DNA from: a virus
DNA length: 64,000 bases
IMG/VR virus record: IMGVR_UViG_3300009509_000001
Location: 1 to 64,000 of that record
Direction: 5' to 3' (one strand)
A model generated the notes under the pieces. The model saw only the letters and a list, made by a program, of their open reading frames with translations. It ran no database searches and had not been told where the DNA came from. Position numbers and translations under genes: made by a program. The first letter of the stretch is position 1; every line of letters starts with the position of its first letter. Shown piece by piece: positions 46,244 through 64,000 of the stretch.

Positions 46244-47212
46244 CTACAGAAGGGCACCGGTCCGCCAGTTGTGTGCACTGCCGGTGAAGCGTGCCAGGCA
46301 CACTGCGGCAATGTTCGCGACGGTGGCACCCACACATTCGTAGGCGTAGAAGCTGAGCATGAAATCCTCGTGCTTGGTGGACATACAGATGTTGTCCAAC
46401 ACGAAGAAGTCGCCCAGATATTTCGGCGCTGCGAACATGTAAAGGTCGTTGTCGGCGACCAGGTCGTTCTTGATGGTGATGTTCCACTTCAGGCCCATGA
46501 TGGTCCGTTCGGTGAAACCGTTGGTGAAGAGATCTTCAGCCAAGTCACCCCCGATGGTATTCCGGTCGAACGCAACAATATCCCAGATGGTATAGTTGTT
46601 GATCAGACCAGCCACCGGGTTCAAACGACGGTTGGTTGCGGCCAAACCACGCATGGCGTTGGCCAGGGTGTCGCGGTCCATGCCACCAGCCTCGATCGTC
46701 TGACAAGCAGCGAGCGTGGGGTTCGGCACGTTCGGCGTACCGGGAACTACGATGGCATCGACGGTCGCCATGAACTTCCGGTCTTCTTCCGCAAGGATGT
46801 CCTTGAGGATGAAGTCGTTGAAGATCTGACGGATGTCCATGTCGTAGGTGAGCAGCTCGTTGACGTCGGCGACGTAACGACGGCTCATGATACGGTCGAA
46901 CATGACGCGGTAGCGCGGGGCGGTAAGGTTGCTGTCCATGGGGCTGGTGCCGAACGGGACGGTGTAAGCGCCCGCAGAGTTCGGTTCCATGTCCTTGACG
47001 ATGACGGGAAGCGGGGTGTCAACCTGCTTGTCGAGATCGCTGGGCATCACGTCCGCAACGTCGTAAAACTTGCGGGCGAAACCTTCTTCACGTTGACGCA
47101 GGCGAAGGTAGTTGTTAACCTTGTCCTCAGCCTGCTTGCGGATGCCGAAGTCCTGGGAGGTAAGACCCTGGACGACGGACTCGTTCATCATTTTGACTTC
47201 AGAGGTGTTCAT
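46244..47212 (-). CDS. Major capsid protein (HK97-fold presumed, 322 aa)
   Basis: Order protease-scaffold-small-decoration-this gene-terminator; VNELLTYDMDIRQIFNDFILKDILAEEDRKF spine-helix-like segment; SD GGAG. Confidence 0.75.
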   Translation of the reverse strand: MNTSEVKMMNESVVQGLTSQDFGIRKQAEDKVNNYLRLRQREEGFARKFYDVADVMPSDLDKQVDTPLPVIVKDMEPNSAGAYTVPFGTSPMDSNLTAPRYRVMFDRIMSRRYVADVNELLTYDMDIRQIFNDFILKDILAEEDRKFMATVDAIVVPGTPNVPNPTLAACQTIEAGGMDRDTLANAMRGLAATNRRLNPVAGLINNYTIWDIVAFDRNTIGGDLAEDLFTNGFTERTIMGLKWNITIKNDLVADNDLYMFAAPKYLGDFFVLDNICMSTKHEDFMLSFYAYECVGATVANIAAVCLARFTGSAHNWRTGALL

Positions 47213-47226
47213 CGTTTAGAGTCTCC

Positions 47227-47745
47227 TTAGACGTCGGCGCCGGCGGGAATGTACTCCGTCCAGAAGGACAGAACATTCTTGCCATCGCGGTTAACGCTTA
47301 CACCCTTGGACACGACACCAACAGCGGTGAGGTTTCCGTAGGGGAGCTGTCCGAGCAGGTCCACCAGACCGTCGGCCTTGCCTTGCAGCAGGTCGTTCGG
47401 TGCGTACGCGGACGTACCGGTGTACTCGGTGGTTTCAACTTCGAAGGCACCGGAGCCCACGAGGCCGGACATTACTCCACCGGAGATGTTGCCGACGTCG
47501 GAGTTGGTGTCGAAGTCGTCCTGCGAGTTGATCACGAAGATCGGCATCGGCTTGTTGCCGACTGCACCCACGGGACAGCCCTTCACGAGTTCGCCTTGTG
47601 CATCCAGAGAGCAGCACATGCCTTCCAGAATGTCTTCACCGGCCTTGGGGGGCGCAGCGAAGTCAAGGCGGCGAGTGGGGATAGCGCCCTTGACGCTAAC
47701 GAGGGTATGGTCAAACATTTGACCAGGAGTGAGAGTACCACCCAT
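47227..47745 (-). CDS. Capsid decoration/cement protein (172 aa)
   Basis: Beta-tulip-like EVETTEY...YAPNDLL...VGVVSKG; directly upstream of MCP; SD AGGAGG. Confidence 0.65.
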   Translation of the reverse strand: MGGTLTPGQMFDHTLVSVKGAIPTRRLDFAAPPKAGEDILEGMCCSLDAQGELVKGCPVGAVGNKPMPIFVINSQDDFDTNSDVGNISGGVMSGLVGSGAFEVETTEYTGTSAYAPNDLLQGKADGLVDLLGQLPYGNLTAVGVVSKGVSVNRDGKNVLSFWTEYIPAGADV

Positions 47746-47768
47746 TTTGTAGCCTCCTTTTCTTGGTT

Positions 47769-48167
47769 TTAGCTAAGAGTTGTATTCCAGCTTTGTTCCC
47801 ATGCTTCGTCCGAAGCTGCCTTATTCTGCCCACCGGCGGCATCAGCCGCCTGTTTGGCGAGCGGAGCGGGCGTGCCAAGCGGACGAGGTGCGGAGTCGCT
47901 TTCGCGCTTCCCAAACTCGTCTGCGAGACGCTGCAGACTCAGCAATGCTTGATCCGGATTTTCCGGATACGACTGCACCAGCGTTTCAGCGGCCTCCTTT
48001 GACAGGAGATTACGAGCAACCAGCTTTTTGGCCGTTTGCTTGAGGACATCCTCACTGAAAGCGGGCTTTGCACTGGCCACTGCGGCCTTCTTGCGAAGGT
48101 CTGCGATGACTTCCTGCGACACTTCAACGTAGTCCACTACGTTTTCGAGCAGTTCCCGCGTGTTCAT
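47769..48167 (-). CDS. Small helical head-assembly (scaffold-like) protein (132 aa)
   Basis: Between scaffold and decoration; three KxA motifs. Confidence 0.55.
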   Translation of the reverse strand: MNTRELLENVVDYVEVSQEVIADLRKKAAVASAKPAFSEDVLKQTAKKLVARNLLSKEAAETLVQSYPENPDQALLSLQRLADEFGKRESDSAPRPLGTPAPLAKQAADAAGGQNKAASDEAWEQSWNTTLS

Positions 48168-48179
48168 GATGATGTCTCC

Positions 48180-49226
48180 TTACTTCGCTTGGATTGACTT
48201 CAGGGCTTCCAGAAGGGCGCCCTTACGGTCGGATGCGGTTTTCTCCAGAGGCGGCTCCTCGACGGGAACTTCCTCTTCGGCCATGGGCTCTTCACCCATA
48301 GCGGCTTCTTCCTGAAGCATCGCTACGATCTCTTCATCAGAAGCACCGGTTTCTGCCTTGATTTCCTCAACGGCGGCTTGCGCCTCCATGAGTTCCTCAG
48401 GCGTCACACCGGCAGCATCCAGTTGTGCTGCCAAGTCATCCAGGGCAGCCGTATCGTCTGGAGACAACTCGGCTTCCGGTTGGGCCTCCTCAGGAAGGAC
48501 AGCCTCCGGACTCTGGACGGCGGCGGCGTCGAGCAATGCGGCGGCTTCTTCCTCGGAAGGAGCCATGCCTGCGTCGACGACCTCGTTTATGTCCTCAGCT
48601 TTCTTCTGCAGGCCCCGTTGGAAACCGGCGTTGAAAGCCAGAAAACTTTCGAGAACTTCGGGATCGATGTCCTCTTCGGCCAATTTGCTGATGCCGGCTG
48701 CGGGCGCCTGGGACGCCTGCTTCTGGATCGGCTCGACCTGTTCAAACTTGTTGGTGGCGATGACTTGCAGAATCGTCGAAGCCAGCCGTTCCGCACGCGC
48801 AACCTTCGCGATCTCACTGGGAGCCGCGTGGGCGGTGGTAACGTCGGTGACGTTCACGTTGTCGCCTTCCATCTTGACGGACTCGTCCGCGTTGAGCTCT
48901 TTCGGGCTCTGCGGGTTGTCCTGCGGATGAGTGACTTCGTCCTCTTCCTTGACCTGGGCGCCGTCGTCGGTGGCCAGCTGAGCGTCACCCTTGGTGGCTC
49001 CCATTTCGCTGTCCTTGAGATCGGCTTCCATTTCCGCACCACGATCCTTTTCGGCAGCCAGCGTGTTGTCGGCGCTGACCTCTTTGATCTCGGTGCCCGT
49101 CTTCTTTGCCTTCAGCTCTTCAGCACCTTCCCCCTGGGGGTTGGTCTGGTCGGCGGCGGTCTTCTGCAGGTTGGCCTGGTCGAAGAAGTCGTCGACGAGT
49201 GAAGTGACCAAATCTTGTTGATTCAT
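48180..49226 (-). CDS. Acidic scaffolding/core protein (348 aa; start moved to ATG 49226)
   Basis: Very acidic, helical or disordered, follows the protease; six KxA motifs. The track's N-terminal 19 codons overlap the protease gene end. Confidence 0.65.
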   Translation of the reverse strand: MNQQDLVTSLVDDFFDQANLQKTAADQTNPQGEGAEELKAKKTGTEIKEVSADNTLAAEKDRGAEMEADLKDSEMGATKGDAQLATDDGAQVKEEDEVTHPQDNPQSPKELNADESVKMEGDNVNVTDVTTAHAAPSEIAKVARAERLASTILQVIATNKFEQVEPIQKQASQAPAAGISKLAEEDIDPEVLESFLAFNAGFQRGLQKKAEDINEVVDAGMAPSEEEAAALLDAAAVQSPEAVLPEEAQPEAELSPDDTAALDDLAAQLDAAGVTPEELMEAQAAVEEIKAETGASDEEIVAMLQEEAAMGEEPMAEEEVPVEEPPLEKTASDRKGALLEALKSIQAK

Positions 49227-49267
49227 TGTCACGGGTCCTTTTTGGTTTCCGTTTGGATTGCACCTAC

Positions 49268-50710
49268 CTATACTGTAGCACAAAGTTGGACTACAGACAA
49301 ACGCTGCTCGGTGTCGGTGAGACCATCAGCGAAGCTAAGCACGTAATTGGCGTACTCGCGCGCCAGGAGAACGGACGAGTCCGATGCCTCCGACGCCTTC
49401 TTCTGTATGACGACCTTACCGCCCACAGGGGCTCCATTCAGAACGGCCCTGATGACCCGAACCCGTACAGGTTCTTGTTCAATCGAACACTCGGGCTGCA
49501 TGGCCTTCGCGTCCGCCATCAGTGACCCGTCACAGGAACCGGCGGGCTCGTAGCTGCCGTCGTTCAGAACGTCGGAGAGACTGTCGGACTCCAGCAGATT
49601 GCCCAGGATTCCCGGGACGGCCTGCTTTACGTCGGCCATTTCGCCTTCGACGTCGCCGAACTTGTCACCCATGACCAGCTTTAGGAAAAGCTCCACCGGC
49701 AGGATGACCTTGCAGCGTTTGAGCGCGCCCATTACGGCGTGCGGGTCTTCGGCCGACATGCGGCCGATTGCATTGTCGTCGACGCATCCGAAGCCGGATT
49801 CCGGGGCAAACGCCTCGGTACCCATATCCGGGTCGTTCGACAGCAAAACTTCTTTTTCGATCTTGGCCAGCTTCTGGAGCAGGTTGTACCTGCGAGCCAG
49901 GTTACTACCGGCCGGGAAAGCGTTTACGGGCGGAGCCATGCCGTACATTTCGGCCAGGTGGGCTCCGGTGAGAACTCCGGCGGCGGCGACTTTTCGCAGC
50001 CCGAAGCAGATCTTCTCGGCGGGGCGTTCGACGCCGCTGATGTCATGGAAGAACGGGCGCGGCGTAAGCGCGCACACCTGCGTTCCGTCGCTGGCCAGCT
50101 GCATCGCGTACTTGTTGAGGTGGTCGCAATAGTCTTCGATCTTGCGGGCCTCGTTATGGCAGTAGCTGCAGATGTCCTCAGGGCAGTCGCTGCCCATGCT
50201 GAAAAAGATGGCTTCGTCATTGGCGACCTTCTGGAGCTCTTTGCGCCATTGCCGTTCATCGACGCCGATGATGAGCTCACCGCGATCCATCGGCAGGTTG
50301 TACGCCGCTTTGACGATATAGCCGCTGGGTTTTCCGTCTTCATGCTTGTTGATGTGCTGCTTGTAGACGGCGCCGTTGGCCATGAAAGTCTTGTCGTGGT
50401 AGTCGACCAGGCCGCCCTTGAGATGGATGGTGCGGCGTTCCGGGTCCTTCGGGTCCGGGCACGTATGGCTCGCGCTCTTGCGGATGAAGGCGTCACCGTT
50501 GTTGTTCGGCCCGTAGCGATCCCATGCGCCGACACTGATAAGATGGATGTACTGGTGCCCCGGCCGGCGCTCGAATTCCATGTCCTTGTCGAACAGTGCG
50601 GCACGCTTGTGCAGCCAGCCGTTGTCGATCCCGCGGCTGTGCAGCGGTACCAGGCTTGCCGTCGGCATGCCGAAGTCGAACGAATCCGGGAATATCAGCT
50701 TCCTGATCAC
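49268..50710 (-). CDS. Prohead maturation serine protease with Cys/His zinc-binding segment (480 aa)
   Basis: GPNNNGDAF, YKQHIN, FSMG (catalytic Ser candidate) followed by CPEDICSYCHN...YCDH, then FHDISGVERPAEK. Confidence 0.75.
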   Translation of the reverse strand: MIRKLIFPDSFDFGMPTASLVPLHSRGIDNGWLHKRAALFDKDMEFERRPGHQYIHLISVGAWDRYGPNNNGDAFIRKSASHTCPDPKDPERRTIHLKGGLVDYHDKTFMANGAVYKQHINKHEDGKPSGYIVKAAYNLPMDRGELIIGVDERQWRKELQKVANDEAIFFSMGSDCPEDICSYCHNEARKIEDYCDHLNKYAMQLASDGTQVCALTPRPFFHDISGVERPAEKICFGLRKVAAAGVLTGAHLAEMYGMAPPVNAFPAGSNLARRYNLLQKLAKIEKEVLLSNDPDMGTEAFAPESGFGCVDDNAIGRMSAEDPHAVMGALKRCKVILPVELFLKLVMGDKFGDVEGEMADVKQAVPGILGNLLESDSLSDVLNDGSYEPAGSCDGSLMADAKAMQPECSIEQEPVRVRVIRAVLNGAPVGGKVVIQKKASEASDSSVLLAREYANYVLSFADGLTDTEQRLSVVQLCATV

Positions 50711-52386
50711 TTGGTGCCTCCGCTTACCATGTAATCGAGGAGATTCTTGTACTCCTCGTCGGTCATGTTTCCGCCTTCACGCAGCTTCTTGATGGCCGTG
50801 ATGGCCTTGCGGCCGACCTTCTTGGTTTTGCTGCGCGCGGCCTTGACGTCCTTCTCGGACTGGGTACGACGCTCGGCGCCCTTTTCCTTGAGATCCATTT
50901 CGCGTTCCTTGACGGAGAGTTCGCGCTCTTTGAGAGCGTCGGACTTGGCGTCGCGGCGCGGGGCCTTCTTTTCACCGCCGCCGGCTTTCGCCGGAGCGCC
51001 CTTAGCCCCTGCGGACCCGTCGAGAATGTCGCCGACGCGCCCGGCATCGAGACCGGCCTTGTACTTGGCGGCCCGGTCCTCAAGCTGCTTGGCAGCCAGA
51101 TCGACGTCGGTTATCCGCCCCTTGGCGATCTCCTTGCCGATGGCCTGGAGTTCCTTGATGGTGGCCGGATCGGAAACGTTGCCCTGGACGAGCTGCTGGC
51201 GTACCAGCGACTTCAGCCACGAGCTGTATTTCGGATCCAACAGGTCGGGCATTGCGCCGACGACGTTGTTGTATGCCTCCATCGTTTCGTCGATGGGATA
51301 ATCTTTGGTAAAATCGTCGGCCGCGACGTCCACGAACGCCTGCGTGGCCCGGATCTGGTTGAGGCGGTTGCGCAGAGTGGCGTCAAACGCCTCCTCTTCG
51401 CCGACCTTCTTTTCCTTGGTCAGCTGCTCGTACATCGGGGTCTTGGCGAAGTTGATGACCGGGTCGAGAAGACGCTGGGCGCTTCCCTTGACCGCCGCCC
51501 CGACTCCGCGTGCGGCACCGCCGACGTTGCCCAGGGACGTCATTCCCCGAACACCTTCGCCTGCCTCTTCCTGAAACTGCTCTGCTACGCCCAGCTCGGG
51601 AAGCGTCAGCGCCACTTTCTTGAGCAGACGGTTGAAATGGTTGTATGACCGGGCCTCGTCGATTGCGATGCTTACGCTGGTATAGGGTTCCTCCAGCGGG
51701 AAGATCGCGGCGGCCGCAGTCTTGTGGAGTTTGAATTCCGTGGACGTGTGCGCTCCGACCAGCTTCATCAGCCGGACGCCGTCGTCGCCGTAACGGTTGA
51801 CGGCTAAGCGTGCGACCTTCATCATCGGCTTGCTGGGCATGCGCCGGATGACGCTGCAGATACGATGGATGGCGTCCTCGCTTGCCTGCTTGTGCATCGA
51901 GATCTTTTCGCGGAATTTGTCGATGCTGCGGCTCAGGTTGTCGGTCGCGGTCATGATTTGTCGGTCCAGGCAACGGACGTCGACCGGCTTCGGCTCGGCA
52001 CCCAGATCGAAGGCGACCTTGCTCAGGCCGTGCACCCTCAACGTGTTCTCCTGGAGAGCCGGTATCGGCAGGTCGAGTGCGGCGGAAGCCGCCTTCTTGT
52101 GGTATCCGTAGATAATGTTGATGACGATGTTGGGATCGATGAGCGGAATGTCTTCGGCGCGGTCTTCACTCGCGCGCTTCTGGAGCGTATGAATGCTCTT
52201 CGACTTGTTGTAGGCTTCGCATGCGCGCCGGACGAGTTCCGGGGTCATGCCGTCGAACTGCGTGAAAGTTTCCGCTGCCACTTTGTTCAGGTCGGCGTCA
52301 GGCGTGAATCTCGTTTTGTCGATTATCTGCTCGATGGCCGACATGACCGACTGTTCAAGGGCTTTGTCAAGTTTCTTGAAACTCAT
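50707..52386 (-). CDS. Internal head protein candidate (559 aa, eight KxA motifs)
   Basis: ORF track; motif density; basic low-complexity C-terminus. Confidence 0.55.
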   Translation of the reverse strand: MSFKKLDKALEQSVMSAIEQIIDKTRFTPDADLNKVAAETFTQFDGMTPELVRRACEAYNKSKSIHTLQKRASEDRAEDIPLIDPNIVINIIYGYHKKAASAALDLPIPALQENTLRVHGLSKVAFDLGAEPKPVDVRCLDRQIMTATDNLSRSIDKFREKISMHKQASEDAIHRICSVIRRMPSKPMMKVARLAVNRYGDDGVRLMKLVGAHTSTEFKLHKTAAAAIFPLEEPYTSVSIAIDEARSYNHFNRLLKKVALTLPELGVAEQFQEEAGEGVRGMTSLGNVGGAARGVGAAVKGSAQRLLDPVINFAKTPMYEQLTKEKKVGEEEAFDATLRNRLNQIRATQAFVDVAADDFTKDYPIDETMEAYNNVVGAMPDLLDPKYSSWLKSLVRQQLVQGNVSDPATIKELQAIGKEIAKGRITDVDLAAKQLEDRAAKYKAGLDAGRVGDILDGSAGAKGAPAKAGGGEKKAPRRDAKSDALKERELSVKEREMDLKEKGAERRTQSEKDVKAARSKTKKVGRKAITAIKKLREGGNMTDEEYKNLLDYMVSGGTK

Positions 52387-52389
52387 GCC

Positions 52390-53220
52390 TTATACCTCAT
52401 CTTGAAATTTGTTAATAGCTATCATTTCATCTTCAAGCGTCATCGACTCGTCCGGACGTCGTATCGCGGACTCCAACGCGTCGAAAACTTCCGCCAGCAT
52501 GGCCCGATCATCATGAGTGTTGTCGTCATCGGGCCTTGTGGACTCCTTGTGCCACAGAGCCGTAAGGCTCGCTGCGGGAGTACCAGCACTATCTATTAAC
52601 TTAGCACCGGTATGGATAGATTTCAAAACTTCCTTGACGTGCGTGCTTATGCCGAGCCCCTGCATCCACTGGGCGAGCTCCGGCTCCAGGTGTTTTCCGT
52701 CTATCGCATACTTCGAAAATTTGTCTATTCCGCCGCCATAGGCGACGACCTTCCACATGTACGCCGTGTCGAACTTGTCCTTTCGAGTGATGCTCCTGTT
52801 CGGCACGAAAATGTTCTTGTGCACCCAGAACGGTTTGTCTCTGTCGGCCGCCACGTCGAAGAACAGGTGCTGGTACAGCTTTACCAGCCGAGGCGTAAGG
52901 AACCTGGACACGTACGCCTGGAAAAACTCGATGTCGGCGTCTTCGGCCAGCAGCCCGGCCTCCATGATGTCCCGGAACCCGCTGACGCTGTTGTCCCGGT
53001 AGATCTCCAGCGCGAGCACGAGCCCACGTATATGCCCGTTGTTGCGGAGCATGTCCTTATCCAGCGACTGGTTGTAGTACCGTACGATCAGCTCCTTCAA
53101 CCGCTTGACGCCGTCATCCGGGCACTGGCCGTAGACCGGGAGATTCGCTTTCTCCCGCTCCACTTCGCGCATGGCGATCTGAAACCGCCAGTCGGGTCTG
53201 TCTGTGAATGGACTATCCAA
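52390..53220 (-). CDS. Hypothetical helical protein (276 aa)
   Basis: Tiles with neighbours; no recognised motif. Confidence 0.6.
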   Translation of the reverse strand: MDSPFTDRPDWRFQIAMREVEREKANLPVYGQCPDDGVKRLKELIVRYYNQSLDKDMLRNNGHIRGLVLALEIYRDNSVSGFRDIMEAGLLAEDADIEFFQAYVSRFLTPRLVKLYQHLFFDVAADRDKPFWVHKNIFVPNRSITRKDKFDTAYMWKVVAYGGGIDKFSKYAIDGKHLEPELAQWMQGLGISTHVKEVLKSIHTGAKLIDSAGTPAASLTALWHKESTRPDDDNTHDDRAMLAEVFDALESAIRRPDESMTLEDEMIAINKFQDEV

Positions 53221-55408: not shown

Positions 55409-55409
55409 G

Positions 55410-57233
55410 TCAGACCTCGTTTATGTTTACTAGCCTCGGGAAATAGGAAATGCTGTCCTTCTCGCTGACAGCTCCTCTGGTGGCGGCTCTGGTCACCGTT
55501 CGTTTAAGATTTTCACCCGCCAACTGCGTCATGAGATCGGGGTCCGTGCTCATGAAGTCCTGCGCACGGATGATCTCCGGTTCGAAAGGTGGCGGGCTCG
55601 CATGCGTCATAACCTGTTTTACACCGGCTGCCTGAAGCTTTCTGATCACGCGCGGCGTTATGCGCGTTCCAATGGTGTAATGCAGGTATGGCTGTTCTAA
55701 GTATAACTTATTCGCCGTAGTGACCGTTTTCAACCCAGCCCCCTCACGCGGCGTCCAATCGGCGGCCAACGTGTTGTAGTTTATCACGTCGTCCGGAAGG
55801 TGGCCGTTGATTCCCTCCGGGTCGGTGATGCGCACCTTGTTGACGAATTCACGGGCAAGGTACTCGAGATTCCGACGGTCGGTTCCGCTGTTCGAATTCT
55901 TCAGCAGGCTGCGAAGATGATTCAGGAAGTATACCCGGCCTTCGCCGATTCCCTTGTGCTTCACGAGCTCGGCGGCGTTGAGCATGCCGTTGGTCATCAT
56001 GTCGCCGGCCTCCACCGTGTCACCCTGTTTTACCGTGATGTCGTAGCCTTCGGGCACATAGTGCTTCTCACTGCCGACCCACAGAAACGTCCCGCCCTGG
56101 GCGGCCTTGGCGACTCTGGCGACCTTTCCGTCCACCTGGGACAGTACTGCGGCGCCAGGAAATTCCTTGGGCACCTGAAAAAACTTGTTGACGGCCTTGA
56201 AGCCGCTCTCCTGCTTCTGCGTGCTGCCGATCTCCCCGCCGGCATGCTTCGAGCTGATGGCGCTCTGGGTAAGCGGCTCGATGAAACTTCTGGCGCCCGT
56301 AATCCCCACGGTGTCGCCGATGTCCGGCAACGTCCCGGTTTCGCGCACTCCCGCGCACTTGGCGCAGATGCCCTCTTTGGCTTTGCAGTTCAGGGCGCTT
56401 CGGCCCACGATCTTCTTATCCTTGATCAGCGCGGAGTTCTCGTCGTCGATGATCGTCCCTGCCGGAAGACCCGCGATCGGCTTGGCCAGCACGGTTCCGA
56501 TGTTGTCCGGATCGTCGCCGTCCAGCTCGAGGCCCTCGGTCGTTCCGCAATCCTCCGTGGTCACCACGTCGCGATGACTCACGTTGGTGAGTTGCTTTCC
56601 GAAGTAACCGCTGTCGGCCGTCGCGAACTGCACGTCCACGTAACCTTTGCGCCCGCCGTGACTGGCGGCCCAGTAGGACAGTGGGCTCACGCCCTCGGCG
56701 TAGCCCTCTAAGTTTGGATAAGGCACGGGCCTTCCCTTGGAGTCGGCGCTTATGAGGTTGCCGAGCAGCAGCTGACGCAGCTGAAAGGCTTTACCGCGGC
56801 TCCCGCTGTTGATCTGGAGTGCGAACGCGCCATTGCGGTCGCTGACCGCCTTCAACAGGTCGTCGTCGATCGTGGCGCTGAAGTCCTGGACCATTTTGAG
56901 GACGGCCTGCTCCTTCTGCTCTGGGCTCAGCAGCGGGCTGTCATACGTCTGGTCGACCTTTTCCTTCAAGGCGTCGCGCCGTTGTTTGATCTCCGGCGGG
57001 ATCTTGAAGTCTTCAAGGCTAAGCGAGGCTTCGCGACCGTACAGCGACGCCACGTTGATGCCGATCGTGTTCAGCTTCTGGAGCGACTCGACATACTTGT
57101 CGGGGTCTTCCTGGGCCATGCGGGTGAACAGCTTGCCGACGGCACGCTTGTCCAACGCTCCCTGGAAGTCCTTGTAGCCTTCCGGTAGTGCTTCCCTGAC
57201 CTTTTCACGGCCCAATGTGGTTACTGCGCTCAT
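55410..57233 (-). CDS. rpoC: Phage multi-subunit RNA polymerase, beta' C-terminal half (607 aa)
   Basis: TTLGR start; INSGSRG; bridge helix HGGRKGYVDVQFATADSGYFGKQL; Zn site EDCGT...NCKAKEGICAKC; trigger loop EPLTQSAISSKHAGG. Confidence 0.93.
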   Translation of the reverse strand: MSAVTTLGREKVREALPEGYKDFQGALDKRAVGKLFTRMAQEDPDKYVESLQKLNTIGINVASLYGREASLSLEDFKIPPEIKQRRDALKEKVDQTYDSPLLSPEQKEQAVLKMVQDFSATIDDDLLKAVSDRNGAFALQINSGSRGKAFQLRQLLLGNLISADSKGRPVPYPNLEGYAEGVSPLSYWAASHGGRKGYVDVQFATADSGYFGKQLTNVSHRDVVTTEDCGTTEGLELDGDDPDNIGTVLAKPIAGLPAGTIIDDENSALIKDKKIVGRSALNCKAKEGICAKCAGVRETGTLPDIGDTVGITGARSFIEPLTQSAISSKHAGGEIGSTQKQESGFKAVNKFFQVPKEFPGAAVLSQVDGKVARVAKAAQGGTFLWVGSEKHYVPEGYDITVKQGDTVEAGDMMTNGMLNAAELVKHKGIGEGRVYFLNHLRSLLKNSNSGTDRRNLEYLAREFVNKVRITDPEGINGHLPDDVINYNTLAADWTPREGAGLKTVTTANKLYLEQPYLHYTIGTRITPRVIRKLQAAGVKQVMTHASPPPFEPEIIRAQDFMSTDPDLMTQLAGENLKRTVTRAATRGAVSEKDSISYFPRLVNINEV

Positions 57234-57237
57234 TTAT

Positions 57238-57942
57238 CTACTTCAGGGGTTCGGGCACGCCACCTGCCGCCCATGATTTCGCGGATTCATGAAGACCAGC
57301 CGCAGCACCGCCGTAAAGCAACGTTCGAAGAGCCGTTGCGAGGGCGCCTTTGCCGGCGGTTTTCAACTTTGCACGCGTCGGGATGCCCGGCGCACTCTTT
57401 ATCTTTCCTGGGCTGACGTTCATCCCCTTCGGAGCATTTACTCCGATAGACATCTTCTTGGGCTTTCCAGCCTGGGCAGCCTCGAACTTGGCGAGTTCGC
57501 CTGCCTCGAGCTTGTTAAGATCGTACAAAGACTTCAAACCGCTCCCAATGCCAAAGACGGGTGCAGCGACTCCGGTGACCTTGGCTACGTTCCCGGTTGC
57601 GGCATCCGCAGCCGTCTCGAGAATCCCGCGATTGGCGAGTTTCTTCTTTTCGGCGAGAAGCTTGTCGTAATCTTCGTATTCCTTTTCCTTCTTCTTGCCC
57701 TGGGCCGACAGGTACGAGCCGACCCCGGCCCCGGCAGTGGCACCGAGGCCAGCGCCGAGTATGCCGGCACCCGCGCCCTTCAGTCCGAGCCCGTAACGCG
57801 TAAGCAGGTAGCCCATTCCGCCGCCGCCGAGAGTGGTCAATGCCAGAAGCATCGCACGTTGCTTGGATGCATCCTTGCTCGACGGCTTGGCGTCCTTCTT
57901 GTCTTCGTCGCCCGCTGTTTTGTAAAGTAGGTACTGTCGCAC
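57238..57942 (-). CDS. Glycine-zipper membrane-active protein, ejection-protein candidate (234 aa; GTG start 57942)
   Basis: SD AGGAGG 7 nt upstream; LLALTTLGGGGMGYLL...GAGAGILGAGLGATAGAGVG; N-terminal LYKTAG. Confidence 0.6.
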   Translation of the reverse strand: MRQYLLYKTAGDEDKKDAKPSSKDASKQRAMLLALTTLGGGGMGYLLTRYGLGLKGAGAGILGAGLGATAGAGVGSYLSAQGKKKEKEYEDYDKLLAEKKKLANRGILETAADAATGNVAKVTGVAAPVFGIGSGLKSLYDLNKLEAGELAKFEAAQAGKPKKMSIGVNAPKGMNVSPGKIKSAPGIPTRAKLKTAGKGALATALRTLLYGGAAAGLHESAKSWAAGGVPEPLK

Positions 57943-57953
57943 TGTCGGCCTCC

Positions 57954-58685
57954 TTATCGAGCCAGCTTGGTTTTGCTCCAATCGATGACGCTGGCCGTTT
58001 TCGGCAAGGTTTCACCTGGAGGGAGCCCGGCATCCATCTCTGAAAATCCAGGAGCTCCTGAAAGTTGGTCTGCAGCGAGGGCCGCTGCCGCATTGTCGAT
58101 TTCGGACGGTTCGGCCTGCGCCGGCGTCGGTTCGGTATCGCCGCCCATGCCGACGTCACCGGCCGGAAGCTGCACGCCCATGGCTGCAGCCAATGCCGAC
58201 AAGCGATCGTCCACGGCCTGCATTTTGGCCATGATGTCCTTGTTCGTGGCGCGGCCGGATTCTTCTTTCTCCTTGCCGCCGCTCACTTCCTGCAAAATCT
58301 GCTGAAGGTCTTCGAGATTGAGCTGAACGGGGGTTCCCGCCGCCGCTTCCATCTCTTCCATTCCGGGCTCCGGGGGCATTCCGCCGCCCATTGCCATTGC
58401 AGCCATCGGATCACCGCCCATAGCTGCCATCGGATCACCGCCCATTGCGACCGGGTCCATCGGCATTCCGCCGCCGCCCATTGCGGCCATCGGATCACCG
58501 CCCATAGCTGCCATCGGATCACCGCCAGGAGGCATGCCACCCATTGCGGCCATCGGGTCCATCGGCGGGGCACCACCACCCATGGCAGCAGCCTGAGCTT
58601 CTTGCGTTACGGGGTTGAAGGCGTTCTTTTTCAGCCCGTTTCTGGCCTCGGCTGCCTGTTTCTTCAATAGGTTAAGGTCAATCAT
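57954..58685 (-). CDS. Met/Gly/Pro-rich low-complexity internal protein (243 aa; ATG 58685)
   Basis: SD AGGAGG; MIDLNLLKKQAA...; GGDPMAAM repeats; LPKTAS near the C-terminus. Confidence 0.7.
   Translation of the reverse strand: MIDLNLLKKQAAEARNGLKKNAFNPVTQEAQAAAMGGGAPPMDPMAAMGGMPPGGDPMAAMGGDPMAAMGGGGMPMDPVAMGGDPMAAMGGDPMAAMAMGGGMPPEPGMEEMEAAAGTPVQLNLEDLQQILQEVSGGKEKEESGRATNKDIMAKMQAVDDRLSALAAAMGVQLPAGDVGMGGDTEPTPAQAEPSEIDNAAAALAADQLSGAPGFSEMDAGLPPGETLPKTASVIDWSKTKLAR
58371..58585 (-). repeat. Coding repeats GGDPMAAM
   Basis: gccatcggatcaccgcccat at 58402, 58426, 58486 and partial at 58510. Confidence 0.85.
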
Positions 58686-58704
58686 GATTCCTCCTGAGTT
58701 TCTA

Positions 58705-58714
58705 TTTAATATAG
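58705..58714 (-). promoter_or_regulatory. Candidate late-promoter element CTATATTAAA
   Basis: In the intergenic gap after the RNAP stop, 20 nt upstream of ATG 58685; identical to 28086-28095. Confidence 0.4.
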
Positions 58715-58716
58715 TC

Positions 58717-61700
58717 TTATGCCTTGCTTTTTTCCAATATGACGATCGGCGTGTCGATGTCGATCTCCCCGGCGTTGAACGCTTCCTGCGCTTCGCGCAT
58801 GGTTCTGAACGTACGCTTGGCCTGGCCCTTGCCCGGCCGCGTGGCCAGATACAGCCCCTGTACGAACTGCTGGCGCGGTACGTAGTGGGCCGTGAAGTCA
58901 CGCGGACTCAGGAGGTTAGCTTCGGGCGTCATCTTGGCCCTGGCCTCCTCGACCGCCTCTTTGCTGACGGGAGCGTAATAGGTCACGCTGTCTCCGTCGA
59001 AATCCATACCGTAAGGTTCGACGATGCTGGGGCTCACCTGCACCGACTTGCCTTTGACGAGCACCGGTTCGAACGCCATGACTCCGTACTTGTGCAGCGT
59101 CGGTGCCCGGTTCACGATGACCGGGCGTTCCTTGACCGCTTCGTACAGGAAGCTCTCGGCCTTCTGATCGCGATCCTTCACGCGCTTGATGGCGTCGGTC
59201 GGCGCATAACCGCTCTTCACCATGTTGCGGACGACGAACGGCTCGAAGACGTCCCAGGCATCCTTGATCGGAATGCCGATCTTGTTAAGGGGCATGGACG
59301 GGTTCGGCGTCACGACGCCGCTTCCGGCCAGGTTCATGGCCGTACCGAGCACGCGGCGGTGATAGCCACCGTACTTGGCGCTCCCCTTTCCGAGTGCCCA
59401 CTTGAGCAGGCCCTGGACGTTCTTTTCCTGGAGCTTGGCGTCGTCGGGATCATACATCCCGGTGAGTGCCTTGTAGGTGTTGTACATCTGTTTGCGGGCG
59501 CCCTTTATACTGCTGTCGGGCAGTCGCTCGCGAGCCGAACGCATGTCGTCGCGGGCGAACACCAGGCTGCGGTACAGCATATTGGCATCGGCCGTGATGT
59601 TCGTGCCGTCGAGCTGCGTAACCGGGCGGAACTTCGGCGGGAGCACCGGGACACGCTCCATCATGAAGTCTTTCGGGTGAACGTCCTGTTCCTCCATGCT
59701 CTTCAGGAACCGGTAACGCTTGAGCGCCTTGTCCTTCTTGCTGGGCGTACTTCCCTTCAGATCCTCCATGGCGCCCTTGACCGCGGCCTTCATGTCGATC
59801 TTGGCCAGCGCCGCCTGTATGGCGGCTCCGCCGGTCTTGTCGCCGATGGCCTCTTCGCCGCTCATGACGGCGTTGAATTTCTTCTGCGTCATTCCGAGTA
59901 CGCTGGCGAGCGCAGGCTCCATGACCGGGTTCGGTAGTGGCTCGTCGAGCTGAATGTAACCCCAGCCGGTGCCGTCGTCTCCGAAAATCTTCGGATCGAA
60001 CAGGCCCCCGTCGATCGGCTTCATGGTCTTCTGGTCGAAGGTGCGGGCGACCCCGAGCTCATGGCCTTTGGCCAGATCCTTGGCCTGGCGGTCAGTCATT
60101 CCGAAAAAGTTGATGCGGTCGGGCTGCTCATCGACGTTGATGCCGGCTCCCTTCAGATGCTCGTAGAACTTCTTGTTGACGATGGGGGTGCTCGGCATCT
60201 TGGGCACGCGGCCCATGCGGAAGTCACGCCAGAACTCGTCGTTGGCCTGGCCGCGGATGAGCTTCGCGTCCTTGAGTACCTTCATGGCTCCGTGGCTCAC
60301 CAGCGCCGACGTGTGAAGTCCCCCGATGAACTTGGAACCATGCTTGCCGCCTCTGAGCGGCGTGTCCTCACCGGAGGACGGGCCGACTCCACGGCCTTTG
60401 CCTTTGTCCTCGGCCATATGCATCAGTCTGTAGTAGAAGGCTTCGCCTGTGAGGACTTCGGGTATCTTGCGGCCGGTCACGGGGTCATATAGATCTTCGT
60501 TGGCGCTCAGGCCGGCCTGCTTCAGTTTTTCCTCGTACTTATCAATCATCTTTTCGTCGAATCCTTCGACGATTTCGGGCTTCCCGGTCTTCCTGGCCAG
60601 CTTTCCGGCAAGCGCTTCGGTGACCTGCATCGGATTGACGCGGCTGATTATGCCGAGCGGGCTCAGCAGCACATCGTATGGGTTGCCGTCCTTGTCCAGC
60701 GGCATCTCGTTGTCGGGAAGAATGTTCACCACGCCCTTGGCTGCATATCGGCTGCTCATTTTGTCGCCGTTGCGCATGGGCACGTTGGCCCTGGTGTAAA
60801 CCGTGGCGTGCTTGTCGCCTTTGTCGGCTTCCACGACCTTGCCTTCGTAATCGTGATCCCAGGTTTCGACCACGGCCGTGCGGGTCTTGCGTCCCAGGCT
60901 GCCGGGCTTGGCCTCGTTGTGCCTGACGGCCACGATCATCGGGTCGCCCTTGCGCAACACGGTGCCGGGCTTCACGATCCCCTGGTCGGTAAGCGTGTCC
61001 ATCTGGTCCTTGGTGAATCGGCCGGAGAACTTGCCGATAAATTCCTTCTTGTCAAAAGCGGTGTTGGTGGAGACGGGTACGCGCTGCTTGTACATCTTCT
61101 CGGCGGCGAGCTTCTTGGCTGCCGATTCGGAGATCGTGATCGCGTCTTCGTATGCGTGACCCTTCCAGTTCATGTAGGCTACGCGCAGATTGCGGCCCTG
61201 GGCTGCGACGCCCTTGTCGTCCGTGTAGTTGGTCGTGGCCAGAACCTGGTTGGGTTTGACCTCGTCGCCGACCTTAACCTGCGGAATGCTGCGCAGGTAC
61301 CCCTTCTGGTTGAACGGGTGATTGTTGTACAGATCGTATGTCTCGGTGCCTTCGGGTCCGCGGATGGTGATGCTGTCGGCGTCCATGGCTGCAACAGTCC
61401 CCTTGATCGTGGACTTCCGCACACCCATCATCTGCCCGATGTCCTCTTCGGCCGTGCTGGTGCCCTGGCGACTGCGTACGAGTGGAGCTTCACGCTGCGC
61501 AAGCGGCATCGCCTGGACGCCGTACTTGCCACCCATCTGCAGGCGGTTGGACATGATCCCGCTCTTCCCGGGGACGCTGTTGGAGCCCTTGCTGAACATG
61601 TTGGAGTCGTCCATGATGTAGTAGTCCACGTCCTGCTTGGGGACGATCTTCACGCCCTTGCTTCCGTGGATGGCCGGAACGAACTTTCCCTTGGCATCGA

Positions 61701-63075
61701 ACTCCTTCTTGGTCGCCACGCGGCTGCGGGCGGCCGTCAGACTGTCGACCCATTCTTCCTTGCCGGTCTTGGCATTGAACATTTTGGTGTAAAGCCGGCC
61801 ATCGTCGCCCTTTCGGACACCGTTGGCCAGGTACAGATCCAAACCGACGCGTAGAGATTCCACGCTGCGGACGGGGTCGACGAAGCCGGCAAAGCTGTCC
61901 TGTACCGCCCGAGTCTCGCTGGGAGCCGTGCGTACACCGCTGATCCCACCTTCGCCAATGCGGCTGATCTTCGTGCTCAGGTCGATGGCTGAAAAGGGAC
62001 TGCTCCCATCGATATAACTCGCATGACGTGACTCGTTGAATATTGCATCGACGTGTTTATTCATGGGAGCAGTCGGTATATCATCGAAATTACCGCGACG
62101 CGATATGCGCCACAGCAGATTCCGCGCTATGCCCCCACCGTCACGCACGATGCGCTCGGCGAAATAATCGGCGGGTCCGTCCACCTTCTGAAATTCAAGG
62201 CTGTCTCGATAATCCTCCCCGGCTTCTCCCCGGCTAAGCTTCAGGACCTTGCCGGCCGATTCCAGAAGAGTCTCGGGCGTGAGCCTCGGGTGTGGGCGTC
62301 CAAGCGTAATCTCGGTGGATACCGGGTCCAGCTCTGTACGCTGGAGCTTCTCGATGAGCTCGTCGTATTGGGCGGACTTGTCCTGCGCCGTTTTCGGTAT
62401 TCCACCCGTAAACCGCTGCGTCGGCTGCTGGATGTCGCTGGCACGTCGGTTGACGTCCAGGAGCTCGGCGCCCCACTGTTGTTTGATCTGATCGTCGGTC
62501 ATCCCCTGCCGTTTCAGGATCGTGTAAAGTTTGTAACCCCTTGTTCCCTGCTTGAGCCGGAATATGCCGGTCTTCGGGTCGAGCTCGATCTTGAACTGGC
62601 CGCCGGTACCCTGCTTCGGGTTTACGTGGGCCTCGAAAAAGCCGTTCTCCTTCTTGCGCGTGTATACGCCCGGCGTCAGTCTGAACATGTAGTTGATCGA
62701 CTGTTCGCTGCCGTTGCGGATGAAGGTTCCCCGTTCCGTCATCCACGGCACGTTCATGAGCACGCGCGGATTGCTCGTGGTGGTTTCCCCGGTCTCCTTG
62801 TTCGTTAGCTTCCAGCGACCGCGCAGCTTGGCGGTCACGCTGCCGTTCTGAAGCACGGCCTGCTTCTCGTCCCGGAGCCTGGGTTTGTATTCGTCGTAAT
62901 CGACACCGTCGACATCGAGCACGAAGCGTTCGTTCTCCAGCGGGAAACGCTGTCTGAACGCGCTTTTCGTGTTGTCGAGGATCCGTTGGCGCACCTGGGC
63001 GTAGTCCGTCGGGCTGTATGGCTTCGACTTTGCACCGACAACCGGATCCAGTAGACGGGTCTGGAAGTCCTGCAT
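58717..63075 (-). CDS. rpoBC: Phage multi-subunit RNA polymerase: complete beta (~982 aa) fused to beta' N-terminal half (~470 aa), 1452 aa
   Basis: Beta motifs PWMTERGTFIRNG, HAYEDAI, GDKMSSRYAAKG, ISRVNP, RLMHMAEDK. Junction near 60130 (AGINVD/EQPDRI). Beta' motifs PVLPPKFRP, NRAPTLH, catalytic YGMDFDGD (58990-59013). Confidence 0.95.
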   Translation of the reverse strand: MQDFQTRLLDPVVGAKSKPYSPTDYAQVRQRILDNTKSAFRQRFPLENERFVLDVDGVDYDEYKPRLRDEKQAVLQNGSVTAKLRGRWKLTNKETGETTTSNPRVLMNVPWMTERGTFIRNGSEQSINYMFRLTPGVYTRKKENGFFEAHVNPKQGTGGQFKIELDPKTGIFRLKQGTRGYKLYTILKRQGMTDDQIKQQWGAELLDVNRRASDIQQPTQRFTGGIPKTAQDKSAQYDELIEKLQRTELDPVSTEITLGRPHPRLTPETLLESAGKVLKLSRGEAGEDYRDSLEFQKVDGPADYFAERIVRDGGGIARNLLWRISRRGNFDDIPTAPMNKHVDAIFNESRHASYIDGSSPFSAIDLSTKISRIGEGGISGVRTAPSETRAVQDSFAGFVDPVRSVESLRVGLDLYLANGVRKGDDGRLYTKMFNAKTGKEEWVDSLTAARSRVATKKEFDAKGKFVPAIHGSKGVKIVPKQDVDYYIMDDSNMFSKGSNSVPGKSGIMSNRLQMGGKYGVQAMPLAQREAPLVRSRQGTSTAEEDIGQMMGVRKSTIKGTVAAMDADSITIRGPEGTETYDLYNNHPFNQKGYLRSIPQVKVGDEVKPNQVLATTNYTDDKGVAAQGRNLRVAYMNWKGHAYEDAITISESAAKKLAAEKMYKQRVPVSTNTAFDKKEFIGKFSGRFTKDQMDTLTDQGIVKPGTVLRKGDPMIVAVRHNEAKPGSLGRKTRTAVVETWDHDYEGKVVEADKGDKHATVYTRANVPMRNGDKMSSRYAAKGVVNILPDNEMPLDKDGNPYDVLLSPLGIISRVNPMQVTEALAGKLARKTGKPEIVEGFDEKMIDKYEEKLKQAGLSANEDLYDPVTGRKIPEVLTGEAFYYRLMHMAEDKGKGRGVGPSSGEDTPLRGGKHGSKFIGGLHTSALVSHGAMKVLKDAKLIRGQANDEFWRDFRMGRVPKMPSTPIVNKKFYEHLKGAGINVDEQPDRINFFGMTDRQAKDLAKGHELGVARTFDQKTMKPIDGGLFDPKIFGDDGTGWGYIQLDEPLPNPVMEPALASVLGMTQKKFNAVMSGEEAIGDKTGGAAIQAALAKIDMKAAVKGAMEDLKGSTPSKKDKALKRYRFLKSMEEQDVHPKDFMMERVPVLPPKFRPVTQLDGTNITADANMLYRSLVFARDDMRSARERLPDSSIKGARKQMYNTYKALTGMYDPDDAKLQEKNVQGLLKWALGKGSAKYGGYHRRVLGTAMNLAGSGVVTPNPSMPLNKIGIPIKDAWDVFEPFVVRNMVKSGYAPTDAIKRVKDRDQKAESFLYEAVKERPVIVNRAPTLHKYGVMAFEPVLVKGKSVQVSPSIVEPYGMDFDGDSVTYYAPVSKEAVEEARAKMTPEANLLSPRDFTAHYVPRQQFVQGLYLATRPGKGQAKRTFRTMREAQEAFNAGEIDIDTPIVILEKSKA

Positions 63076-63076
63076 A

Positions 63077-64000
63077 CTACACCACCGCTACGTTGCGAGC
63101 CAACGTGTCCGTCGGGTCGATGATCTGGTCCTCGAGAGCTCCGGCACTCGCACCCTGGTCGATGAGATTGACGCTGCGTGGCCGGACCTTCTTTTTCTTG
63201 TTTATATGCGCGTCGAGCTTGGCCTTTATGCGCGGGTCGATAGCGCCGATGAGTACCGGCGGACGCTCCTGCAAGGCCATGCGCTCGGCCGCCTTTTCAG
63301 CCGCCTTTATGCGCTGCCGGTTGGGATCGCGCTCGTCGGCCCACTGCTTGGTAAGCACGGCGCCGCCGGCGAAAGCCGTCACGCCCAGCAACGCCAATGC
63401 GGCCTGGAGCGATCCCATGGTAGATGACTGTCCCGGGTCCTTGATGCCGAGGATGAGGCGCTGGGCAAACGTCGGGCGCTGGCGATCTTCGGCTTCCTTC
63501 TCGATCAGGTCCCGGGTGATCCCGGCGGCCTGCTCGGCCCGTTCCTTACCGTAGTCGCGGAGCGACGGGTCCGGGCTGATGACCGGCATTCCGGCCTGTA
63601 CGGACGCTTCGAGCCTGCGGTTGCCCTTCTGGGCCTCCTGCTTGCGCTCGAGCGCGCTGAGAAGATACTTGATCCCGAAGGCGCCGCCGCCGTAGAGCCC
63701 TGCCATGAGCATGGCTTTCGTCAGCATCTTCTGATCGAAGGTCGCATCTTTTCCGGCGGCCCGCATGAAGCCTGGCACCGGAGTGTCTTCGACGCCGAAC
63801 GGAAGAGCGGCCGCCTTCACGTAATCGCCAATTCCGGCCGTTTTGCGAACTGTACTCATAAGCTCGAGATTGACCTTGCCGAGCTTGTTCATATTCTCTT
63901 CAATGCGTTTCTGCCGCTCACGCTTCGCACGTATATCGGCGAGCTTGTTGGCCAGGGTAAAGCCACCGTAGCTGCTGATTGCCATGGCCGCGATCGGAAG
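63077..64000 (-). CDS. Membrane-active internal protein candidate, 5'-truncated (>=307 aa)
   Basis: Frame stays open upstream of ATG 63985 to the window edge (LPIAAMAISS...); hydrophobic segments AMLMAGLYGGGAFGIKYLL and AALALLGVTAFAGGAVL; VRKTAG, YVKAAA, IEKEAE motifs. Confidence 0.6.
   Translation of the reverse strand, partial: LPIAAMAISSYGGFTLANKLADIRAKRERQKRIEENMNKLGKVNLELMSTVRKTAGIGDYVKAAALPFGVEDTPVPGFMRAAGKDATFDQKMLTKAMLMAGLYGGGAFGIKYLLSALERKQEAQKGNRRLEASVQAGMPVISPDPSLRDYGKERAEQAAGITRDLIEKEAEDRQRPTFAQRLILGIKDPGQSSTMGSLQAALALLGVTAFAGGAVLTKQWADERDPNRQRIKAAEKAAERMALQERPPVLIGAIDPRIKAKLDAHINKKKKVRPRSVNLIDQGASAGALEDQIIDPTDTLARNVAVV

Follow-up and report, generated by a model that had tools for sequence, protein, structure and literature searches.

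The DNA analysed here comprises bases 1-64000 (hereafter the window, 64,000 nucleotides) of an uncultured virus record that is complete at 194,576 bp and has direct terminal repeats (IMG/VR record IMGVR_UViG_3300009509_000001), and our subject is a short peptide motif, [LIVMY]-x-K-x-A, that recurs in the proteins of its head module. All real genes of the window lie on the minus strand, and the GC content is 57-61% throughout. The head module occupies the interval 46244-63985, which a first-pass annotation had flagged for this motif as a candidate cleavage code of the prohead protease. It encodes the major capsid protein; proteins of 172, 132, 367 and 480 amino acids (aa); proteins of 559, 276 and 731 aa; the C-terminal part of an RNA polymerase beta' subunit; two small proteins; an RNA polymerase fusion protein; and a 326-aa protein at the right edge. 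Read along the one strand, the order is protease, scaffold-like gene, two small genes and capsid gene, so that the protease gene lies upstream of both the scaffold-like and the capsid genes, and this order is identical in Salmonella phage Arash and Vibrio phage D69. Together with Vibrio phages D181 and D148, these are the only cultured relatives; identity to the four is 25% for the capsid proteins and 33-34% for the protease regions. Bacillus phage G is a more distant relative, connected through its gp19, and a megablast search of the head module against GenBank phages gave zero matches.

To describe the motif, we distinguish the loose form given above from a strict form, in which Ala or Ser follows the Ala. 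The head-module proteins contain 45 loose copies, compared with 11.1 ± 3.3 in 5000 whole-protein shuffles, none of which reached 45 (maximum, 26). Shuffling inside 30-aa blocks, which keeps the local composition, gave 11.2 ± 3.2. The strict form was found 22 times in the head module against 1.8 ± 1.3 expected, and the tail module was at chance for the loose form (14 observed, 13.5 expected). When the 223 predicted proteins of the genome were scanned without bias for ~72,000 gapped tripeptides, L.K.A ranked first (54 against 20.8, p = 1e-9), with I.K.A close to the top. Genome-wide, the tag is also concentrated in the first 40 residues of proteins (22 against 6.3, p = 9e-7). A block comparison gave 40 against 8.2 for the head module and 20 against 6.1 for a second block at 97-108 kb of the genome, and a 344-aa protein at 186 kb has 5 tags against 0.49 expected; tag-rich proteins therefore exist beyond the interval flagged at first. 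The enrichment over a composition-matched null that the first-pass annotation had anticipated was thus found in the head module, and the tail module stayed at chance. Every hexamer it had listed is present in the gene named for it, including exactly eight in the 559-aa protein, IRKQAE at residue 24 of the capsid protein and IPKTAQ at residue 226 of the 1452-aa RNA polymerase. Its counts also agree for the scaffold-like protein (six), the 132-aa and 243-aa proteins (three each), the sheath (two) and the right-edge protein (three in the window, with one further copy beyond it). Its counts of five for the protease and for the 731-aa protein have to be raised to eight loose copies each (four and six strict, respectively), and that of one for the tape measure protein to two.

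The specificity of the tag was determined in homologues of five head-module families from 29 related metagenomic loci (88 proteins, 48.6 k residues). In these, [LIVM].K.A occurs 521 times against 77.8 expected (6.7-fold). For the five other orderings of the three residue classes and for other spacings, the counts mostly match expectation; a few rise to 2-3-fold, and these overlap the residues that the tag itself prefers. With Arg replacing Lys the enrichment is 1.5-fold, with Gly, Ser, Thr, Val or Pro replacing Ala it is 0.6-1.15-fold, and versions missing any single one of the three anchor residues are at ~1-fold. At the first position, Leu and Met are enriched 9-fold, Ile and Phe 6-fold and Val 2.3-fold, and Tyr is at 0.6-fold. 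The tag with Ser or Ala directly after its Ala was counted 269 times against 11.1 (24-fold), and the refined tag is [LMIF]-x-K-x-A-[S/A]-[E/D]. A logo of 473 unique instances limits the information to seven consecutive positions (0-6) with flat flanks: Ser (25%) or Ala (23%) follows the tag Ala in 48% of instances combined, and Glu or Asp takes up the next position in 30%. The position between Lys and Ala is frequently occupied by Gln, Thr, Val, Glu, Leu or Ile, and seldom by Gly, Pro or Asp.

Because the flanks carry no information, the tags are not pieces of longer repeats. Within the tag, Lys and Ala show the same codon preferences as elsewhere in the genes, which rules out a DNA-level signal and places the selection at the level of the protein. 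The same data bear on the idea that the motif arises from composition or from amphipathic helices in proteins rich in Lys, Ala and Leu, or is the remnant of an internal repeat. The tag carriers are indeed rich in Ala and Lys, and AlphaFold2 (AF2) models put several tags in helices. However, global and block shuffles alike yield 11 copies where 45 are found, reordered or respaced versions rise at most 2-3-fold against the 6.7-fold of the tag itself, Arg does not stand in for Lys nor Gly or Ser for Ala, and the uninformative flanks are at odds with a repeat; we give this explanation almost no credence. What the sequence statistics describe is a short linear motif that is specific, selected at the protein level and concentrated in head-assembly proteins. 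To this extent the first-pass interpretation is supported, by the enrichment and by the conservation of the motif in relatives that are only 25-35% identical.

We next consider the 480-aa protein (49268-50710), the presumed prohead protease. In its AF2 model, which has a mean predicted local distance difference test score (pLDDT) of 84, residues ~16-237 form a mixed alpha/beta domain predicted with confidence and the C-terminal half is helical; this gives a layout of catalytic domain (~16-242) and helical C-terminal extension (243-480). In an exhaustive structural comparison with 48,161 representative chains, T4 gp21 (5jbl) came first (Z 9.9; 136 of 165 residues, 3.0 Å) and the varicella-zoster virus (VZV) protease (1vzv) second (Z 8.0), and the proteases of human cytomegalovirus (HCMV, 5.7) and Kaposi's sarcoma-associated herpesvirus (KSHV, 4.3) ranked lower. 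This ranking assigns the catalytic domain an assemblin-type fold and supports the earlier designation of the protein as a protease of the gp21/assemblin fold. Pfam and PDB sequence and profile searches with the protein returned no match, and no similarity to T4 gp21 was found at the sequence level.

The protease family has at least 114 metagenomic members, and 71 sequences with 26-76% identity to the window protein were aligned. His105, His119, Ser171, Asp223 and Ser225 are invariant in these homologues, as are Cys181, Cys184 and Cys195, and His197 is nearly so. The spacing of His119, Ser171 and His197 presumably resembles that of the herpesvirus His-Ser-His triad. Inside the catalytic domain, the cluster of Cys181, Cys184, Cys195 and His197 (residues 181-197) looks like a zinc-binding insert, for which T4 gp21, with 212 aa, has no room; alternatively, His197 might be a catalytic residue instead of a zinc ligand.

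Eight tags are found in the protease itself, at residues 33, 76, 132, 159, 198, 238, 278 and 435 (0.75 expected from composition). The 71 homologues average 7.3 tags (range, 2-14) against 0.95 expected, and the family in the related loci has 119 against 13.7 when near-identical loci are removed (de-duplicated). Among the 71 sequences, the tag is retained at K35 in 68, at K240 and K280 in 64 each, at K161 in 43, at K134 in 36 and at K437 in 26, and the two best-conserved tags flank the catalytic domain. The domain-bracketing tags are those at 33 (nucleotides (nt) 50597-50614), 238 (nt 49982-49999) and 435 (nt 49391-49408), of which the latter two coincide with low-pLDDT segments (238-251 and 430-439) of the AF2 model. 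It is conceivable that an enzyme other than the 480-aa protein reads the tag, for example a host protease or a Lys-modifying enzyme. We consider this very improbable: the tag is densest in the protease itself, and it accompanies the protease family across very distant phages whose hosts are Salmonella, Vibrio, a Bacillus-group host and uncultured hosts.

The major capsid protein (322 aa, HK97-type; 46244-47212) belongs to PHROG 2522 (major head protein) and has a weak sequence match to phage G gp27 (PDB 6wkk). It carries a single N-terminal tag, IRKQAE, at residues 24-29 (nt 47126-47143), which predicts a propeptide of ~28 residues. A tag 24-29 residues from the N terminus is present in 16 of 17 capsid homologues, including that of Arash (LVKEAG), and the capsid protein of Vibrio phage D69 has LTKEAG. 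In the Arash virion proteome, 41 residues of the capsid protein are uncovered, a number that could stand for residues 1-38 plus a tripeptide, as a cut after Ala29 would predict, or equally for one 41-residue tryptic peptide. Outside the window, a 159-aa open reading frame (ORF; genome 85218-85697, minus strand) ends in a copy of capsid residues 31-60 (~60% identical), a segment that begins right behind the predicted cleavage tag.

We now turn to the remaining tag-bearing proteins of the head module. The Ala-rich 367-aa protein (48180-49283) has six tags, at residues 39, 158, 186, 198, 225 and 346 (0.75 expected), the last of which lies ~20 residues from the C terminus, and its de-duplicated family in the related loci has 26 against 3.3; we call it scaffold-like only for its place between the protease and capsid genes and for its composition. 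The 132-aa protein (47769-48167) has three strict tags (LRKKAA, LSKEAA and LAKQAA), and its de-duplicated homologues have 5 against 0.5. All eight tags of the 559-aa protein (50707-52386; 1.64 expected from composition) lie 24-43 residues apart within residues 33-260, and its C-terminal 300 residues have none. Its de-duplicated family has 103 against 13.9, and the sites at K35, K123, K222 and K273 (reference numbering) are retained in 14, 12, 11 and 10 of 14 homologues, respectively. In the 731-aa protein (53213-55408; 8 tags against 1.05 from composition), the tags form two clusters, at residues 5, 139, 178 and 209 and at 509, 539, 563 and 578; the de-duplicated family has 109 against 16.0, and K141, K180, K541, K564 and K580 are each kept in 13-18 of 22 homologues. 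As for the protease, site conservation in the 559-aa and 731-aa families was read from homologues that are 26-76% identical. The AF2 model of the 731-aa protein is weak (pLDDT 64), with site 139 in a low-confidence segment, and a fold search with it returned generic helical hairpins only.

Further along the module, a 243-aa protein rich in Met, Gly, Pro and Ala (57954-58685) consists mostly of DPMAAMGG-type repeats framed by tags at residues 7, 18 and 227. Five related loci have co-directional homologues of its gene, and a plus-strand ORF at 58065-58670 is probably a shadow of it. The right-edge protein has 326 aa in the full genome, where its gene runs on from the window (63077-64000) to base 64057; three of its tags lie in the window, and one more is at residue 7. 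The tag is not enriched in the 276-aa protein (52390-53220; de-duplicated family, 0 against 2.4) or in the 172-aa protein (47227-47745; family, 2 against 1.3), and it is at chance in a 247-aa protein encoded within 55410-63075. In the tail region of the window, two adjacent genes (37049-39871 and 39882-41999) encode large proteins of 940 and 705 aa that are both members of PHROG 10356 and 11772 and, because they share these families, are probably tandem paralogues; tags are absent from both.

A cleavage motif of a prohead protease is expected to be over-represented under strict residue requirements and to be present, at conserved positions, in the capsid propeptide, the scaffold and the protease. 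Here, the tag is over-represented in head proteins with strict residues and has a conserved placement in the capsid protein, the scaffold-like protein and the protease. Its positions, namely the capsid N terminus, the scaffold-like C terminus and the linkers flanking the protease domain, are those seen in substrates of prohead proteases.

The two RNA polymerase genes of the head module differ from these proteins. The beta' C-terminal part (607 aa; 55410-57233; Pfam RNA_pol_Rpb1_5, PHROG RNA polymerase) and the fusion of beta with the N-terminal part of beta' (1452 aa; 58717-63075; PHROG RNA polymerase) have tags at chance and at positions that are not conserved; the de-duplicated beta' C family has 12 against 13.8. 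Homologues do not conserve LDKRAV near the N terminus of the 607-aa protein, and IPKTAQ in the 1452-aa protein is probably a chance match. In a virion preparation of phage Arash, the RNA polymerase subunits outnumber all other proteins (PMC10585845), suggesting that the polymerase is packaged. The same proteome, obtained with trypsin, lists 116 proteins, many non-structural enzymes among them (PMC10585845). Because the abundant virion RNA polymerase carries tags at chance only, the tag is not a universal packaging label. The suggestion of the first-pass annotation that the motif tells which proteins are packaged in the head thus stands in so far as the tag is concentrated in head-assembly proteins, but it fails for the RNA polymerase. 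We also considered whether non-substrates avoid the tag. The raw family counts appeared to say so (1 against 6.9 for the 276-aa protein and 19 against 30.7 for RNA polymerase), and this signal was gone after de-duplication (0 against 2.4 and 12 against 13.8).

The same tag, often at the same aligned positions, is found in homologues from the 29 related metagenomic loci, from Arash and from D69. The head modules of Arash (gp218-gp226) and D69 (genes 0268-0275) have the same tag enrichment, and some of their 250-310-aa proteins carry eight or nine tags. In phage G, the protease homologue gp19 (JN638751, 13704-14606) has 7 tags against 0.73 expected, and the portal protein gp14 has MAKQAAS at residue 16, near its N terminus. 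The capsid protein gp27 of phage G has zero tags, and with 280 of its 282 residues the deposited chain (6wkk) is essentially full length. The tags in gp19 suggest that the Lys-x-Ala rule may have arisen early in the lineage of this protease. In the phage G paper, gp19 is named a head maturation protease and no cutting specificity is given.

A multi-enzyme chain outside the window also carries the tag. This 941-aa protein (genome 104741-107566, minus strand) has Pfam matches to 2H phosphoesterase (Acb1-like; residues 43-152) and InPase (195-334) and a weak PHROG match to polynucleotide kinase-like proteins (825-888). Its tags, at residues 172, 347 and 818, coincide with the domain borders, consistent with processing of the chain into its separate enzymes inside the head, and from its sequence the protein is probably a head-packaged enzyme polyprotein.

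Given these results, we propose, with a probability of roughly 0.7, that the 480-aa protein is the prohead protease of the phage and that it recognises and cuts the tag, [L/M/I/F]-x-K-x-A-[S/A]-[E/D]. According to this proposal, the protease would free its own catalytic domain through cuts at the tags near residues 35 and 240, and ~28 residues would be removed from the capsid N terminus during prohead maturation. Pieces of ~12-120 residues would be left of the scaffold-like protein and of those halves of the 132-, 559-, 731- and 243-aa proteins that are dense in tags, and the folded domains of cargo proteins would be released and stay in the head.

The tag could instead be a docking or capsid-targeting peptide that stays uncut and recruits proteins into the prohead by binding to the capsid protein, the portal, the scaffold or a protease exosite; capsid-targeting sequences are known on internal proteins of T4. 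The enrichment in the first 40 residues of proteins is as expected of a targeting signal, and a conserved linear motif with uninformative flanks would suit this role as well. However, eight to nine copies per chain, ~25-40 residues apart, tags that bracket the catalytic domain of the protease itself and tags at the domain borders of the multi-enzyme chain are all better explained by degradation, and the abundant virion RNA polymerase has no conserved tags. We therefore regard pure docking as improbable.

For the proposed cleavage, the residue preferences favour one scissile bond over another, although sequence alone does not decide between them. Characterised enzymes of this fold recognise P3 and P1 and favour a small residue at P1'. 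T4 gp21 cuts after (L/I)-x-E, and herpesvirus assemblins cut (V/L/I)-x-A|S. The tag would most likely be cut after its Ala (K-x-A|S/A), with a hydrophobic residue at P5, Lys at P3, Ala at P1 and Ser or Ala at P1', an assignment made by analogy. This register is favoured because Ser or Ala follows the Ala in 48% of the 473 instances and because bulky side chains are tolerated between Lys and Ala; the residue spectrum of that position, given above, suits P2 better than P1'. SPN3US gp245, which cuts after A-x-E, likewise prefers Ser at P1' (PMC10052503). The same protease might, at the same sites, cut after Lys, so that L/I-x-K takes up P3-P2-P1, as in the T4 rule with Lys in place of Glu, and Ala is at P2'. 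The spacing from the hydrophobic residue to Lys equals that from Leu/Ile to Glu in T4 sites, and the preference for Leu, Met, Ile and Phe at the first position resembles T4 P3. Such a cut would, however, need an absolute and unusually strict Ala at P2' (Gly, Ser and Thr are at ~1-fold), would put the bulky Gln, Thr, Val, Glu, Leu and Ile at P1' and would move the preference for Ser or Ala to P3', unlike the P1' Ser of SPN3US gp245; it is unlikely, though still a credible reading of these sites. The 'Ala-specific' code of the first-pass annotation is thus favoured by the Ser or Ala after the Ala and by a register like that of SPN3US and the herpesviruses.

Several observations weigh against cleavage of the tag by the 480-aa protease. 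Cleavage in this phage and in its relatives is deduced from sequence and models only. A Foldseek search of the 480-aa model against the PDB gave nothing, and an hhalign comparison of the protease family with T4 gp21 was not significant and yielded no mapping of the catalytic residues onto the gp21/assemblin active site. The conserved protease tags at 132, 159 and 278 lie inside a confident strand or helices of the AF2 model, and sites 509-578 of the 731-aa protein fall in predicted helices or strands, albeit of a weak model (pLDDT 64). Presumed non-substrates show no significant avoidance of the tag after near-identical loci are removed. The 41 uncovered residues of the Arash capsid protein fit equally well a single 41-residue tryptic peptide, in which case the N terminus was detected. 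In addition, the 'coverage' given in the Arash proteome (PMC10585845, Table 2) conflicts with the peptide counts, for example 100% from 2 unique peptides, and because of this inconsistency the column is unusable for inferring processing.

Compared with known systems, the programme proposed here resembles in outline those of T4, phiKZ and the herpesviruses. With T4, the fold is shared, gp21 being the best structural match; one protease lies upstream of the scaffold-like and capsid genes; the predicted substrates are the capsid N terminus, scaffold-like proteins, internal or cargo proteins and the protease itself; and recognition uses alternate residues. Unlike the x-Glu signal of gp21, the signal here is hydrophobic-x-K-x-A-(S/A), with an extra hydrophobic anchor two residues upstream, and unlike the 212-aa gp21, the protease has 480 aa, a 240-aa helical extension and the invariant Cys/His cluster. 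The layout of tags in the protease resembles the self-processing of gp21 and the release and maturation sites of the herpesvirus precursor.

Like phiKZ (gp175) and SPN3US (gp245), this is a large phage with multisubunit RNA polymerase genes among its head genes. Also shared with these phages are several motif copies in the propeptide regions of many head proteins and a P3-x-P1 arrangement followed by Ser (PMC10052503). Unlike their A/S/G-x-Glu rule, the tag would have Ala at P1 and Lys at P3 instead of Glu and Ala, and unlike that of phiKZ, the capsid protein is small (322 aa) and of the phage G type. With the herpesvirus assemblins, the protease shares the fold (VZV, HCMV and KSHV), a signal in which Ser or Ala follows Ala, a long C-terminal extension and conserved sites just after the catalytic domain and near the C terminus. 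It differs from them in having Lys, and not a hydrophobic residue, two positions before Ala. A nested protease/scaffold gene pair of the herpesvirus kind was considered and rejected: the C-terminal extension has no similarity to the scaffold-like protein and is not a copy of the scaffold-like gene. In the literature, we found no published phage head protease with a Lys-x-Ala rule, and the Arash and phage G papers are silent on cleavage rules. What is new relative to T4, phiKZ and the herpesviruses is the motif itself, the long extension and the Cys/His cluster; a programme run by one assemblin-fold protease is known.

Prohead proteases set which proteins stay in the head and in what form, and to our knowledge only a few of their cutting rules have been established, namely those of T4, the phiKZ group, HK97 and the herpesviruses. 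It is possible, and we put it forward tentatively, that in a large and mostly uncultured clade, with Arash, D69 and, distantly, phage G among its members, the tag serves as cutting rule and packaging address at once, and that the protease of this clade switched from a Glu rule to an Ala rule with Lys at P3. If true, the tag would show the evolution of specificity within the assemblin fold, with Ala at P1 as the herpesvirus solution, and would provide a compact orthogonal protease/tag pair for loading chosen proteins into phage heads. A rule common to hundreds of uncultured large phages and three cultured ones would make propeptides, mature capsids and candidates for injected cargo predictable from sequence, and such candidate cargo would include multi-enzyme anti-defence chains and the enzyme chain with the Acb1-like 2H phosphoesterase domain.

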